Shown here: positions 7,255-9,883 of the stretch, piece after piece
Layout of the letters: every line of letters begins with the position of its first letter
How positions within the stretch are numbered: position 1 is the first letter of the stretch
IMG/VR virus record: IMGVR_UViG_2534682338_000003
Span: 1-21,334 of that record
DNA: 21,334 bases
Strand: one strand, 5' to 3'
Source of the DNA: a virus
Lineage: Duplodnaviria; Heunggongvirae; Uroviricota; Caudoviricetes
The notes under the pieces: generated by a model
What the model was told of the DNA's origin: nothing
The model's input: the letters and a program-made list of their open reading frames with translations, nothing else
Databases searched by the model: none
Position numbers and translations under genes: made by a program

Positions 7255-7323
7255 GAGACCCGGCGGGGGAGAAATCCCTCGCCACCTCTGATGTGGCAGG
7301 CATCCTCAACGCACCCGCACTTA

Positions 7324-7348
7324 ACCCGCTTCGGCGGGTTTTTGTTTT
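7324..7348 (+). terminator. Rho-independent terminator downstream of hokD
   Basis: ACCCGC-TTCG-GCGGGT hairpin followed by TTTTGTTTT. Confidence 0.6.
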
Positions 7349-7469
7349 ATTTTCAACGCGTTTGAAGTTCTGGACGGTGCCGGAATAGAATCAAAAATAC
7401 TTAAGTAGCGCGCAGGGATAAGAGGGATGGTCCCTTAAAGGGGAGAGCTAATTATCCGGAAGGATTCTG

Positions 7470-7721
7470 ATGATGAACATCGAAGAACTGCGTAAAATTT
7501 TTTGTGAAGATGGCCTCTATGCTGTGTGCGTTGAAAATGGAAATCTTGTTAGTCATTACCGCATTATGTGTTTGCGAAAGAATGGGGCTGCGTTAATTAA
7601 TTTTGTGGATGCTCGGGTCACGGACGGATTTATCTTGCGCGAAGGTGAGTTTGTCACTTCATTACAGGCATTGAAAGAGATCGGAATAAAAGCTGGCTTT
7701 TCTGCTTTTTCAGAAGAATAA
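7470..7721 (+). CDS. rem: Rem protein (83 aa)
   Basis: ORF-track ORF MMNIEELRKIFCEDGLYAVCVENG...; GGAAGG SD upstream; position after hokD as in Qin. Confidence 0.8.
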   Translation: MMNIEELRKIFCEDGLYAVCVENGNLVSHYRIMCLRKNGAALINFVDARVTDGFILREGEFVTSLQALKEIGIKAGFSAFSEE

Positions 7722-7787
7722 ACTCATCTACAATCTTGCGCGGGGCTGAACTCCCGCTGAGTAACACCGTGCCACCGGAGAAAACCG

Positions 7788-8066
7788 ATGGCACGCAACG
7801 CAAAATATTACAATTCTGATAATTCGCCCGTTCTTGCCTGCACGCACGGGCGGTATTCTCACGCATTCAAGTCTGAATGGTTCCAGCACCCTCCATGCAC
7901 TGCAGAACAGGCCGAATGGCTGATTCATTCTTACCGCAGGCGCGGGTTCGAGGTTAAGAAAGCTCTCAGTCTCGACTATCGGCACTGGATAATCTCTGTC
8001 AGGCTGCCTTATTCCGAACGCCCACCACGTGCGTCCCGCACTTTCCAGCAACGGATCTGGAGGTAA
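7788..8066 (+). CDS. Hypothetical 92-aa protein, translationally coupled to ydfU
   Basis: ORF-track ORF; GGAG 7 nt upstream of the ATG; its TAA stop (8064-8066) lies between the ydfU SD and the ydfU GTG start. Confidence 0.5.
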   Translation: MARNAKYYNSDNSPVLACTHGRYSHAFKSEWFQHPPCTAEQAEWLIHSYRRRGFEVKKALSLDYRHWIISVRLPYSERPPRASRTFQQRIWR

Positions 8067-8067
8067 C

Positions 8068-9117
8068 GTGCGGGTATTACTTAGACCTGTTCTGGTGCCT
8101 GAGCTTGGGCTGGTGGTCCTTAAGCCGGGCCGTGAATCCATACAGATATTTCATAATCCTCGAGTGCTGGTGGAACCGGAACCAAAAAGCATGCGTAATC
8201 TGCCATCCGGAGTCGTTCCTGCCGTTCGCCAGCCGCTGGCGGAAGACAAAACATTGCTGCCGTTTTTTAGTAACGAACGGGTGATTCGTGCTGCTGGCGG
8301 CGTTGGCGCATTGTCCGACTGGCTATTACGTCATGTTACATCCTGCCAGTGGCCTAATGGCGATTACCATCACACTGAAACAGTCATTCACCGTTATGGT
8401 ACCGGCGCAATGGTGTTGTGCTGGCACTGCGACAACCAACTGCGTGACCAGACATCGGAATCACTGGAGCTGCTTGCTCAACAAAATCTGACAGCATGGG
8501 TGATTGACGTCATCCGTCACGCAATAAGCGGTACGCAGGAGCGGGAATTATCTTTGGCTGAATTATCCTGGTGGGCGGTCTGCAATCAGGTGGTGGATGC
8601 ACTACCTGAGGCTGTATCGCGTCGTTCGCTGGGATTACCAGCGGAAAAAATCTGCTCGGTGTACCGCGAAAGCGACATCGTACCGGGAGAGCAGACCGCC
8701 ACCAGCATATTGAAACAACGCACAAAAAATCTTGCACCGTTGCCTTACGCCCACCAGCAACAAAAATCACCACAGGAAAAGACGGTGGTAAGCATCACCG
8801 TTGATCCAGAGTCTCCGGAATCTTTCATGAAGCTGCCTAAACGTCGCCGCTGGGTTAAGGAGAAATACACACGTTGGGTTAAGACACAGCCGTGTGCTTG
8901 CTGCGGTATGCCAGCCGACGATCCGCATCATCTGATTGGTCACGGGCAGGGCGGAATGGGAACAAAAGCACATGATCTCTTTGTGTTGCCTTTGTGCAGA
9001 AAGCATCACAACGAGCTGCATACGGATACAGTGGCATTTGAAGATAAGTATGGCTCCCAACTGGAGCTGATATTTCGTTTTATCGATCGCGCGCTGGCAA
9101 TTGGCGTACTGGCGTAA
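8068..9117 (+). CDS. ydfU: YdfU, DUF968 protein with a C-terminal HNH-like Cys/His motif (349 aa)
   Basis: Same frame as ORF-track 8029-9117; I prefer GTG 8068 because GGAGG sits at 8059-8063 and the length then matches the 349 aa I recall; motif CACCGMPADDPHHLIGHG...CRKHHNELH. Confidence 0.75.
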   Translation: MRVLLRPVLVPELGLVVLKPGRESIQIFHNPRVLVEPEPKSMRNLPSGVVPAVRQPLAEDKTLLPFFSNERVIRAAGGVGALSDWLLRHVTSCQWPNGDYHHTETVIHRYGTGAMVLCWHCDNQLRDQTSESLELLAQQNLTAWVIDVIRHAISGTQERELSLAELSWWAVCNQVVDALPEAVSRRSLGLPAEKICSVYRESDIVPGEQTATSILKQRTKNLAPLPYAHQQQKSPQEKTVVSITVDPESPESFMKLPKRRRWVKEKYTRWVKTQPCACCGMPADDPHHLIGHGQGGMGTKAHDLFVLPLCRKHHNELHTDTVAFEDKYGSQLELIFRFIDRALAIGVLA

Positions 9118-9130
9118 GTGGAGAACGAGC

Positions 9131-9883
9131 ATGAACCTTGAAGCCTTACCAAAATATTACTCCCCAAAATCTCCAAAATTGAGCGATGACGCTCCAGCGA
9201 CAGGCACCGGTTGTTTAACAATTACGGATGTAATGGCAGCGCAGGGGATGGTGCAGTCGAAAGCACCACTTGGGTTGGCCTTATTTCTGGCAAAAGTTGG
9301 TGTTCAGGACCCTCAGTTTGCGATTGAAGGCCTGCTAAATTACGCGATGGCACTGGATAACCCGACATTGAACAAATTGAGTGAAGAAATCCGGTTACAG
9401 ATTATTCCTTACCTCGTGAGTTTTGCCTTTGCTGATTACTCCAGGTCTGCGGCAAGTAAGGCTCGCTGTGAGCATTGTTCAGGTACGGGATTTTATAATG
9501 TATTGCGCGAAGTGGTGAAACACTACAGACGCGGGGAATCTGTAATCAAGGAAGAATGGGTGAAGGAACTATGTCAGCATTGCCATGGTAAGGGCGAAGC
9601 CAGCACAGCGTGCAGAGGGTGTAAGGGTAAAGGGATTGTTCTGGATGAAAAAAGAACCCGGTTTCATGGCGTACCGGTATATAAGATTTGTGGGCGTTGT
9701 AATGGAAACCGGTTTAGTCGTTTACCGACCACGCTGGCACGACGTCATGTCCAGAAGCTGGTACCAGACCTGACCGATTATCAGTGGTATAAGGGGTATG
9801 CGGACGTCATTGGTAAACTGGTAACAAAGTGCTGGCAGGAAGAAGCATACGCGGAAGCGCAATTGAGGAAGGTGACGAGATAA
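9131..9883 (+). CDS. quuQ: Late-gene antiterminator Q (250 aa)
   Basis: Same frame as ORF-track 9101-9883; start chosen at MNLEALPKYY to match the length I recall; Cys-rich zinc-binding region CEHCSGTG...CQHCHGKGE...CRGCKGKG. Confidence 0.85.
   Translation: MNLEALPKYYSPKSPKLSDDAPATGTGCLTITDVMAAQGMVQSKAPLGLALFLAKVGVQDPQFAIEGLLNYAMALDNPTLNKLSEEIRLQIIPYLVSFAFADYSRSAASKARCEHCSGTGFYNVLREVVKHYRRGESVIKEEWVKELCQHCHGKGEASTACRGCKGKGIVLDEKRTRFHGVPVYKICGRCNGNRFSRLPTTLARRHVQKLVPDLTDYQWYKGYADVIGKLVTKCWQEEAYAEAQLRKVTR

Follow-up and report, generated by a model that had tools for sequence, protein, structure and literature searches.

Upstream of ydfU in the Qin prophage of E. coli lies an open reading frame of 92 codons, here called ORF92, and the locus raises the question of whether the two are one gene split by an ancestral frameshift, a two-component unit, or separate genes that are translated together. 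The window, the whole 21,334-nt stretch of DNA that was analysed, is the E. coli Qin prophage, a defective (cryptic) lambdoid prophage with the gene order relBE-hokD-rem-ORF92-ydfU-Q; all coordinates refer to the window and all features are on its plus strand unless stated otherwise. The answer that is considered probable, with good confidence, is that ORF92 and ydfU are separate nin-region genes of Qin, the one encoding a PHROG 1212 protein and the other the HNH-like YdfU of the DUF968/YbcO group, that lie immediately 5' of Q and are expressed as a single, translationally coupled cassette. The segment that holds both genes (7400-9300) was matched in 4920 of 5426 complete E. coli genomes, and ydfU, a gene of the y-ome, is present in about 90% of complete E. 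coli genomes, often in several copies.

The slot of the pair, as the original prediction had it, is one where lambdoid phages often carry recombination or nuclease accessory genes upstream of Q: it is the nin region, flanked by the replication genes and by Q, and the gene directly 3' of ydfU is ydfT (9131..9883), a Q-type late antiterminator by annotation and by Pfam Antiterm (3.6e-54). Qin itself is without RusA. In other E. coli prophages, the homology blocks start 17 nt before ORF92 and stop at the ydfU stop codon, and the pair therefore travels as a single cassette. The MG1655 reference record shows a 346-nt 'intergenic' gap from rem to ydfU and has no annotation of ORF92, while PGAP calls ORF92 (hypothetical protein WP_012304870.1) and ydfU each as an intact CDS.

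ORF92 (7788..8066) begins at ATG 7788, ends at the TAA at 8064-8066, and has an SD of its own, as had been predicted (GGAG, 7777..7780, 7 nt 5' of the ATG and kept in most alleles). A total of 129 homologues were found. For the whole gene, pN/pS was 0.21 in frame 0 and 1.4-1.65 in four of the five other frames; the fifth, the antisense shadow frame, gave 0.31. The antisense 137-aa ORF at 7728-8141 was rejected as a candidate gene: its apparent constraint (0.31 in one reverse frame) is what a sense frame commonly casts on its antisense, and its composition is unlike that of a protein. ORF92 is a real, protein-coding gene whose core and tail are under purifying selection. Both ORF92 and ydfU are under purifying selection and are present in intact, inducible phages, e.g., PhiR42_1, HannyBb, and Tritos.

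The N-terminal extension of ORF92 (codons 1-26, 7788..7865), found in the Escherichia long form only, is near neutral (pN/pS 0.84-1.06), carries indels of whole codons that always retain the frame, and is predicted to be disordered (AlphaFold2, mean pLDDT 48-66 per 10-residue block); short-form relatives begin at the position of residue 27. The conserved core (residues 28-75, 7869..8012, pN/pS 0.13-0.20) is predicted by AlphaFold2 to form a beta-alpha-beta-beta fold with strands at 28-33, 55-60, and 67-75 and a helix at 39-52, with per-block pLDDT of 91-94 over residues 31-70. The basic C-terminal tail LPYSERPPRASRTFQQRIWR (8004..8063, pI 11.8, pN/pS ~0.11) is near-invariant, and its ...QQRIW[RG] ending is common to the whole family. 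Among 28 alleles, pN/pS was 0.13 in the core and 0.12 in the tail, and with diverged alleles added it was 0.20 and 0.11, respectively; pS was 0.24-0.27 in core and tail alike among close alleles, and 0.24 in the tail versus 0.51 in the core with the diverged alleles added. In a Foldseek search of the ORF92 model against the PDB, no significant match was obtained, the weak matches to an R3H domain, PlyG, and ACT-like proteins all having E>0.1; in BFVD, the sole match was the homologous N15 'Orf QD1'. A literature search by coordinate, accession, or PHROG id returned nothing relevant to ORF92.

The 'intergenic' gap between rem and ydfU thus holds a conserved, selected 92-aa gene, which matters where the gap is treated as an untranslated leader, for example in work on the Rho-dependent terminator upstream of ydfU. 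In K-12, this terminator has been reported to be strong (PMC9160355), which is consistent with poor translation of ORF92 in the silent prophage. Scans for sigma-70 promoters and terminators around ORF92 gave counts not above those of shuffles. The consequences are mainly for annotation, and the understanding of lambdoid nin regions is unchanged.

ORF92 matches PHROG 1212 (E=1.7e-35), its residues 27-92 lying on profile positions 1-66 of 66. This is a family of small, mostly basic, stand-alone phage proteins of ~66 aa with a beta-alpha-beta-beta core and a conserved tail, ...PRPSRxYQQRIWR. The ORF92 family was found by tblastn in 63 phage records across Enterobacterales, and a profile search against 1.84e9 representative proteins gave 75 clusters, nearly all stand-alone and 65-70 aa long. 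PHROG 1212 members are encoded by stand-alone genes of the nin region that lie 3' of the replication/NinB genes and 5' of Q; N15 and PY54 depart from this layout. In a locus sample drawn from IMG/VR with two seeds plus annotated phages, which is seed-biased and consists mostly of one RusA-type clade and close Qin-type copies, the gene 3' of the long form was DUF968 in 82 of 82 loci, and the gene 3' of short forms was RusA (61), NinG (3), YbcO (2), or DUF968 (2). NinG also lies directly 3' of the PHROG 1212 gene in SPN3UB and GF-2, the PHROG 1212 gene directly precedes YbcO in mEp237 and phiES15, and in Klebsiella/Raoultella-type elements a short form lies directly before DUF968, with stop and start overlapping. 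Six further diverged E. coli alleles (63-71% identity) all show the small gene, 1 nt, and DUF968, with RusA next after DUF968 in five of them. The PHROG 1212 gene is followed by other genes in phages of Erwinia, Pantoea, and Hafnia and in PY54.

ydfU (8068..9117) encodes a 349-aa DUF968 protein from a GTG start and matches PHROG 96 'HNH endonuclease' (E=2.8e-171). A 362-aa version from GTG 8029 was rejected: that start is absent from diverged alleles, and therefore 8068 is the real start. Homologues in other genera have ATG at the same start position, and full-length DUF968 homologues across Enterobacteriaceae are 335-353 aa long and begin with MR(A/V)LL at the YdfU start residue. The Pfam DUF968 match covers residues 160-346 (8545..9105; E=1.4e-76, 256.8 bits against a cut-off of 27.8) and profile positions 1-171 of 171.

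In the YdfU C-terminus, the CxxC...HH...CxxHH spacing that had been noted as reminiscent of HNH nucleases was located as C276-A-C-C279 ... H287-H288 ... C310-R-K-H313-H314 ... H318. These residues, together with D303, mark an HNH-like beta-beta-alpha-metal core (8893..9021; C276, C279, H287, H288, D303, C310, H313/H314, H318). Across 53 homologues (50-90% identity), C276, C279, H287, H288, D303, C310, H314, and H318 are invariant, and position 313 is His or, in some, Cys, giving CxxCH. This set accounts for what the His-Me finger superfamily requires: a catalytic His behind strand 1, an Asn/Asp, a metal-binding His within the helix, and two zinc-binding Cys pairs. The AlphaFold2 model places predicted strands at 285-288 and 306-309 and a predicted helix at 311-319; the per-block pLDDT is 81-93 except in the loop. 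The motif aligns with the HH...N...CxxCHxxxH of McrA, which a PDB profile search returned at E=0.076; hhalign against YbcO gave E=5e-4 (probability 31%); the Pfam HNHc_6 (PF16784) score was borderline, 26.3 bits, just below the gathering cut-off of 26.6; and a Foldseek search of the full-length model against the PDB put HNH proteins on top (Cas5-HNH, IscB, Cap5) at non-significant E of 0.5 or more. The HNH-like reading is thus supported by the Pfam DUF968 match, the sub-threshold HNHc_6 score, the YbcO alignment, the predicted beta-beta-alpha fold, and the invariant Cys/His/Asp residues. It is also already known, YdfU having been classified with YbcO (DUF968 + DUF1364) in His-Me finger group 7 (PMC5714182). 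Since the set of zinc-site and catalytic residues is intact, YdfU is most likely a metal-dependent DNA endonuclease. Its substrates would probably be replication or recombination intermediates, as for RusA and Rap/NinG, which hold the same slot in related phages. A literature search for experimental activity of YdfU, YbcO, or any PHROG 1212 protein found no report.

YbcO (DUF1364, PF07102, PDB 3G27), the putative nuclease of DLP12 and phage 82, belongs to the same His-Me finger group 7 as YdfU (PMC5714182). The alignment of the YdfU C-terminus with YbcO takes in the Cys pair and the His as well as the G-x-K-x-x-D segment and the C-x-x-[CH]-H helix, and YbcO occupies the same genomic slot, just before RusA and Q; 3G27 was not reached in a PDB sequence search with the YdfU profile. 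YbcO is ~96 aa long and consists of the HNH-like module alone, whereas YdfU, of 349 aa, has an extra N-terminal part and a second Cys/His cluster. This cluster (8344..8436; C93 ... Y100-H101 ... C118-W-H-C121-D-N123) is invariant in the 53 homologues and lies inside a confidently predicted domain (residues 61-190), where it is modelled as a beta-hairpin (105-118) and then a helix (119-125), with per-block pLDDT of 91-94 over 61-120. It can be put in register with the C-terminal HNH module at a non-significant score (hhalign E=0.15). The N-terminal part, of 260 aa, is without Pfam, NinB, or YbcN similarity, and residues 1-60 are modelled with low confidence (AlphaFold2). Assignments of the N-terminus to Orf/NinB (hhalign E=0.51 against lambda NinB, no NinB Pfam match) and to YbcN (hhalign E=0.044 over only 20 columns of phiES15 YbcN) were rejected. 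The HNHc_6 'Orf-HNH' proteins of Listeria and Staphylococcus phages (Curtis et al. 2014, PMC4118853), phage recombination-region proteins historically also labelled DUF968, likewise carry a C-terminal zinc-finger HNH motif, but are defined by an N-terminal Orf/NinB-like (RAGNYA) domain that is not detectable in YdfU.

At the junction of the two genes, the ORF92 TAA lies between the SD and the start of ydfU, as predicted: GGAGG at 8059-8063, TAA at 8064-8066, C at 8067, and GTG at 8068. The ydfU SD (8059..8063) is taken from the Trp91-Arg92 codons of ORF92, namely the last G of TGG plus AGG, and the stop-to-start spacer is 1 nt. The arrangement TGG AGG TAA C GTG was observed in 83 of the 83 long-form loci fetched, and Arg92 is the rare codon AGG in all 83, whereas Arg89 varies synonymously (CGG 45, CGC 37, CGT 1). 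A TGGAGG-stop ending was also found in 59 short-form genes, where it precedes RusA. This geometry is not due to chance. The invariant stop/SD/start arrangement, with AGG fixed at codon 92 while codon 89 varies, supports the proposed coupled translation of ORF92 and ydfU, and we infer that the coupling is obligatory.

A hairpin is predicted in the RNA at the start of ORF92 (7768..7795; MFE -16.1 kcal/mol, z = -4.5), in which the U and G of the start codon, together with the five nucleotides after it, base-pair with sequence 5' of them to form a 7-bp lower stem, and the upper stem and loop contain the SD GGAG. Folding of six diverged alleles gave an equivalent hairpin every time (-11 to -16 kcal/mol). 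In a comparison of nine distinct alleles, paired cells make up 94% and six of the ten pairs differ on both sides, so that the hairpin covaries; none of 500 shuffles reached it, and slid controls were 17-42% paired. In a second predicted hairpin (8035..8074; -19.3 kcal/mol, z = -2.7), codons 83-87 of ORF92 base-pair with the SD and GTG of ydfU. In four diverged E. coli alleles its energies are -12 to -18 kcal/mol, the z-scores overall are moderate (-1.2 to -2.7), and it is absent from RusA-type and Klebsiella-type junctions. Because the region is too conserved for a covariation test, this hairpin stands as a prediction; if formed, it would make translation of ydfU depend on ribosomes finishing ORF92.

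In the mechanism proposed, the conserved first hairpin would occlude the ORF92 start, the last two ORF92 codons, TGG AGG, would act as the ydfU SD with the stop 1 nt before the GTG, and the second hairpin would pair the ydfU SD and start with ORF92 codons, so that YdfU would be made only if ORF92 is translated. This resembles classical masked-start coupling (e.g., MS2 coat/replicase, trpE/trpD) in that a single nucleotide parts the stop from the next start, the SD of the second gene lies inside the upstream CDS, and this SD and the start are predicted to pair with upstream codons; in contrast to those systems, the coupling here is a prediction, and the masking hairpin is moderately supported.

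The pair had also been suggested to be one gene split by an ancestral frameshift; ORF92 would then be the former N-terminus of a longer DUF968 protein and the locus a decaying pseudogene in a cryptic prophage. The two do lie in adjacent frames (+1), no stop interrupts the ydfU frame in the 25 codons before its start, the prophage that carries them is defective, and one 438-aa ORF92-YdfU fusion protein exists in the database (P0122). However, P0122 is a single sequence on a single contig and stems from a short deletion, both genes are under purifying selection in intact inducible phages, and relatives of ORF92 exist as genes in their own right beside unrelated nucleases. In the alignment to full-length DUF968 homologues, ORF92 does not correspond to their N-terminus: among the >2,500 DUF968 matches listed, the member sequences, which number in the thousands, are 335-353 aa long and share the first residue of YdfU with the MR(A/V)LL start, also where the start codon is ATG; P0122 stands alone among clusters that represent thousands of sequences of 349-352 aa; and the profile search of 1.84e9 representative proteins found no ORF92-like sequence inside any DUF968 protein. 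The split-gene proposal is refuted by these sequence comparisons, and virtually no weight is given to it. No more credible is a programmed +1 frameshift at UGG AGG UAA C that would give an ORF92-YdfU fusion besides the two separate products. The last sense codon is always the rare AGG adjoining the stop, the +1 frame runs straight into ydfU (GGU AAC GUG), and the ORF92 tail has roughly half the pS of the core, but after a +1 slip tRNA-Trp would face GGA in place of UGG and could not pair with it, GGAGG would sit on the P and A sites and not 3 nt upstream as in prfB, and no fusion-length family was found. The TGGAGG-stop ending also occurs before RusA with different spacing and frame, and its function as an SD explains it simply.

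The original prediction of a two-component unit stood in that the pair is inseparable in E. coli, and was weakened in that the small-protein family precedes four kinds of nuclease (DUF968, YbcO, RusA, NinG). In its dedicated form, with ORF92 as a YdfU-binding subunit, specificity factor, or regulator and the coupling setting the stoichiometry, this reading is unlikely, though it deserves some weight. The genes are never separated in Escherichia, neither in the 82 long-form loci nor in the six diverged alleles, and move as one cassette among E. coli prophages; short forms stand directly before DUF968 in Klebsiella/Raoultella-type elements and before YbcO in mEp237 and phiES15; the low-confidence YdfU residues 1-60 would, speculatively, be compatible with folding on a partner; and the strict linkage of the long form with DUF968 in E. 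coli could reflect a specific partnership and not shared inheritance. Against this, the family lies directly upstream of RusA (61 loci) and NinG/Rap, whose folds are unrelated or only distantly related; the other genes that follow the small gene in Erwinia, Pantoea, and Hafnia phages and PY54 in some cases separate it from the nuclease; and the nucleases of lambda and DLP12 type work without it, lambda having the non-homologous NinE and NinF between NinB and NinG. That YdfU is a toxic nuclease and ORF92 its co-translated inhibitor, as in a toxin-antitoxin (TA)-like or abortive-infection pair, is very improbable. The order of a small protein gene followed by a coupled enzyme gene recalls type II TA operons, TA loci abound nearby (relBE, hokD; ParDE in another allele), and expression appears tightly gated, with Rho silencing ydfU; but neither PADLOC nor NCBIfam has a family for ORF92 or YdfU, the small protein is basic where nuclease immunity proteins are usually acidic, the family accompanies the non-toxic resolvases RusA and NinG, and the cassette fills the canonical nin recombination slot from the replication genes to Q.

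With separate, coupled nin-region genes as the preferred reading, we would most readily take the small protein for an accessory factor, nucleic-acid-binding or active in recombination, and not for a dedicated subunit of YdfU; the wider proposal that PHROG 1212 proteins are general accessory factors of phage junction/branch nucleases is rather doubtful. If an accessory role holds, the protein might bind a host factor or particular forms of DNA (e.g., branched, single-stranded) and serve to load, target, or restrain the adjoining nuclease (DUF968, YbcO, RusA, or Rap), and the double hairpin with the coupling in the E. coli cassette would then act as a purpose-built gate by which a potentially dangerous nuclease with two zinc modules stays switched off as long as the small protein is lacking. 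The repeated occurrence of one small-protein family before four nuclease kinds is a modest lead to its function. The lambda NinE and NinF proteins are comparable, since they are likewise of ~60 aa, lie between an Orf/NinB-type mediator and a junction nuclease, and overlap tightly with their neighbours. An identity of ORF92 with NinE or NinF was rejected (hhalign E=0.52 and 0.43, no Pfam NinE/NinF match at E of 1 or less), and the two are positional analogues of ORF92, not homologues.

Of the structure-specific endonucleases of lambdoid phages that stand directly 3' of the PHROG 1212 gene in relatives, in many cases with stop and start overlapping, NinG (Rap) is a His-Me finger protein like YdfU (PMC5714182), whereas the fold of RusA is unrelated. 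In most E. coli copies RusA follows DUF968 and does not stand in its stead, and therefore YdfU is not simply a RusA substitute.

The stretch at 7400-9300 was 100% identical to E. coli chromosomes in the genome comparison, where the annotated genes are rem, one hypothetical gene, ydfU (DUF968) and ydfT (the Q antiterminator), with relB-relE-hokD and cspF/cspB on the flanks. The locus belongs to the cryptic lambdoid prophage Qin. Matches were found in 4920 of 5426 complete E. coli genomes, at a median of 2 and a maximum of 11 places per genome. The hypothetical gene, here called ORF92 after its 92 codons, is annotated by PGAP in other strains (WP_012304870.1), and the MG1655 reference record carries no annotated gene between rem and ydfU (NC_000913.3 1644305-1644650, or 2806-3151 of compared locus L159, equal to window 7722-8067). 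For practical purposes, the K-12 reference annotation lacks one gene, and a testable hypothesis is available for a nuclease of the y-ome. ORF92-ydfU is an ordinary lambdoid nin-region operon and the present details are refinements; the new points are the assignment of ORF92 to a family, its last two codons doubling as a Shine-Dalgarno (SD) sequence, and two predicted start-masking hairpins.

ORF92 reads on the + strand from ATG at 7788 to TAA at 8064-8066, with an SD (GGAG, 7777-7780, +) 7 nt 5' of the ATG. The protein database held 129 relatives with 58-99% identity, nearly all of 90-92 aa. Among 28 distinct alleles, pN/pS was 0.13 for codons 27-72 and 0.12 for codons 73-92, and 0.20 and 0.11, respectively, after six more diverged alleles were added. 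Four of the five other reading frames gave 1.4-1.65, and the fifth, which is antisense, gave 0.31, a value that is the shadow usually cast by the sense frame; the Arg/Pro/Ser-rich 137-aa antisense ORF across all of ORF92 (7728-8141, -) is for this reason most likely not a gene. Residues 28-75 were predicted by AlphaFold2 (48-sequence alignment) to form a beta-alpha-beta-beta unit with per-block pLDDT of 91-94 over 31-70. In Foldseek searches the model had no significant relative among solved structures, and its sole match among predicted viral structures was the homologous N15 'Orf QD1'.

Residues 27-92 matched PHROG 1212 (function unknown) over its entire 66-position profile (E=1.7e-35), the consensus being MKxxWFxHxxxTxxEAxELxxxYRxRGxxxxKxLSxDxxxWxVSVxLPESxxxPRxSRxxQQRxWx. 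Members are mostly basic (median pI 9.7), and by tblastn 63 phage genomes carried relatives, from phages of Escherichia, Klebsiella, Salmonella, Cronobacter, Edwardsiella, Yersinia, Hafnia, Erwinia and Pantoea. When 1.84 billion representative proteins were searched exhaustively with the profile, only 75 clusters were found, nearly all stand-alone, 65-70 aa long and starting at the equivalent of residue 27. Codons 1-26 showed pN/pS of 0.84-1.06, whole-codon indels and low pLDDT. Judged from these family boundaries and the behaviour of codons 1-26, Escherichia ORF92 is the PHROG 1212 family protein plus a weakly constrained 26-aa leader, which supplies its only available start codon. ORF92 had no match in Pfam, NCBIfam or PADLOC, and the family had no similarity to lambda NinE or NinF.

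The original prediction of translational coupling between ORF92 and ydfU was right, and the SD, the stop codon inside the spacer and the CxxC...HH...CxxHH pattern that it described were confirmed from the sequence. The ydfU SD (GGAGG, 8059-8063, +) is built from the Trp91-Arg92 codons of ORF92, and the ORF92 stop sits between this SD and the ydfU GTG (8068, +), leaving 1 nt from stop to start. The junction TGG AGG TAA C GTG was present in all 83 long-form loci examined (Escherichia ORF92 with the leader). Arg92 was always the rare AGG, whereas Arg89 varied synonymously (CGG 45, CGC 37, CGT 1), showing selection at the nucleotide level for the ydfU SD. A TGGAGG-stop ending was also observed 5' of RusA in 59 short-form loci (relatives of about 66 aa), where the GTG of RusA either overlaps the stop or starts 2 nt after it, so that the Trp-Arg end as SD of the next cistron is a family trait. 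DUF968 genes of Klebsiella-type elements have an ATG that overlaps the small-gene stop as ATGA or TGATG. In a hairpin predicted for the E. coli cassette at 8035-8074 (+; -19.3 kcal/mol, z -2.7; -12 to -18 kcal/mol in diverged alleles), the SD and GTG of ydfU pair with codons 83-87 of ORF92; it would mask both and make ydfU initiation dependent on ORF92 translation, the classical arrangement for obligatory coupling, which we infer here. Synonymous divergence in the basic C-terminal tail was about half that in the core (0.24 vs 0.51, diverged alleles included), which fits an extra SD/hairpin constraint.

A second hairpin is predicted at the ORF92 start (7768-7795, +; -16.1 kcal/mol, z -4.5), its 3' arm made up of the last two bases of the AUG plus the five that follow, with the SD in the upper stem and loop. 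An equivalent was found in all six diverged alleles folded (-11 to -16 kcal/mol), one of which has a GTG start and almost unrelated sequence. Over nine distinct alleles, 94% of cells were paired and 6 of 10 pairs changed on both sides; 0 of 500 shuffles reached the observed level, and slid controls were 17-42% paired. One of the strongest Rho-dependent terminators reported in K-12 is placed 'upstream of ydfU', and impairing Rho raises ydfU but not rem (PMC9160355). This terminator is probably located inside the unannotated ORF92 gene, and we infer a link to the start hairpin: poor initiation would leave the ORF92 RNA untranslated.

The relation of the two genes had been put as either one gene split by an ancestral frameshift or a two-component unit. 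The first is wrong. Among more than 2,500 matches listed in two database searches with YdfU-type queries, clusters representing thousands of sequences were 335-353 aa long. A 53-sequence alignment (Escherichia, Klebsiella, Raoultella, Citrobacter, Salmonella, Leclercia, Kluyvera and others) began uniformly at MR(A/V)LL, other genera having an ATG at the position of 8068 (MRALL...), so ORF92 does not correspond to the N-terminus of full-length homologues. The ORF92 profile had no match inside any DUF968 protein among the 1.84 billion representatives. Longer entries are few and come from internal duplication, read-through into Q or RusA, or extension by the gene caller; in the 438-aa P0122, a singleton on one contig, a short deletion fuses ...TFQQR to MRVLL.... 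A 362-aa ydfU version from GTG 8029 was rejected because this codon is missing in diverged alleles. Separately, a 607-aa YdfU-Q fusion (DUF968 + Antiterm; P0123, P0124 and P0126; window 9101-9131) occurs in several assemblies, its variants on 4, 6 and 1 contigs, one of them a 4.68-Mb chromosome, implying a 1-nt indel near the ydfU end in some strains that may be either a true mutation or a sequencing artefact.

The two-component unit is at best unproven. DUF968 was next in 82 of 82 long-form loci with readable downstream sequence, and also in 6 of 6 alleles with 63-71% protein identity and differing upstream neighbours (hok, ParDE, others), five of which had RusA after DUF968. In other prophages the blocks of homology run from 7771 to 9117, and the Escherichia pair is one unit in the sense of inheritance. 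Short forms, however, directly precede RusA (61 loci), NinG/Rap (3), YbcO (2) or DUF968 (2), proportions that are indicative only, the locus sample being biased by the seeds used. NinG directly follows the small gene in SPN3UB and GF-2, other genes intervene before NinG in Hafnia, Erwinia and Pantoea phages, and unrelated genes follow in PY54 and one Enterobacter phage; upstream lies usually an Orf/NinB-type or DUF1367 protein. Most simply, the ORF92 family is read as a nin-region gene defined by its position immediately ahead of the nuclease slot rather than as a subunit dedicated to YdfU; a general role of the PHROG 1212 protein with junction nucleases is a less likely reading. Most E. coli copies have DUF968, RusA, then Q (L002, L003, L167-L169, L171 and L172 compared with window 9117-9131), whereas Qin and L170 lack RusA and have, directly after DUF968, another type of Q (Antiterm plus a zinc finger of the DnaJ-like form CxxCxGxG).

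The HNH-like C-terminus of the 349-aa YdfU (CACCGMPADDPHHLIGHGQGGMGTKAHDLFVLPLCRKHHNELH) was also correctly recognised and is already published, with nuclease activity putative: DUF968 and DUF1364 (YbcO, PDB 3G27) form group 7 of the His-Me finger superfamily, where YdfU is named explicitly and RusA and Q are noted as neighbours (PMC5714182). Pfam DUF968 covered residues 160-346 (E=1.4e-76), HNHc_6 (26.3 bits vs 26.6) and RecA_dep_nuc matched below threshold, and PHROG 96 'HNH endonuclease' matched the full length. Profile comparison gave E=5e-4 and probability 31% with YbcO (hhalign), and E=0.076 with McrA in the PDB, motifs in register. In the AlphaFold2 model, strands 285-288 and 306-309 precede helix 311-319; C276, C279, H287, H288, D303, C310, H314 and H318 were invariant in 53 homologues, and residue 313 is Cys in some, giving the canonical CxxCH. 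Foldseek with the whole, flexibly linked model was non-significant, with HNH proteins at the top. These sequence and model comparisons agree with the published assignment and are not independent proof of it. The N-terminal 260 residues had no Pfam match and no detected relation to NinB/Orf or YbcN; the 'Orf-HNH fusion' proposed for Gram-positive phage proteins (PMC4118853) is therefore not transferable to YdfU, which, unlike them, has no detectable Orf/NinB-like N-terminus. Experiments on YdfU or YbcO were not found in the literature search. Another invariant Cys/His cluster of YdfU (C93, Y100-H101, C118, C121, N123; residues 93-123, 8344-8436) maps to a beta-hairpin and helix predicted within a domain of high confidence. 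It can be aligned in register with the C-terminal HNH module (W...C...HH...C..[CH]; non-significant, hhalign E=0.15) and is possibly a duplicated HNH or zinc module that has degenerated. The strongly conserved linear motif VDPESPxxFMxRPKRRRW (residues 245-262, 8800-8853), in the variable low-confidence linker (pLDDT 40-44) joining the two folded parts, could be a docking or DNA-binding motif.

Upstream of ORF92, a GC-rich hairpin without a T-run (GCGGGG-CUGAAC-UCCCGC, 7740-7757, +) was observed in the rem-ORF92 spacer, immediately preceded by a weak sigma-70-like match (TTTTCA-16-TACAAT, 7707-7734); the count of promoter-like sites around ORF92 was not above chance. Just 3' of hokD, 7263-7344 (+) gave a sub-threshold Rfam match over the full model length to the Hfq-binding sRNA isrK (25.1 bits vs gathering score 50, E=0.01), ending at a terminator-like hairpin and T-run at 7323-7340.
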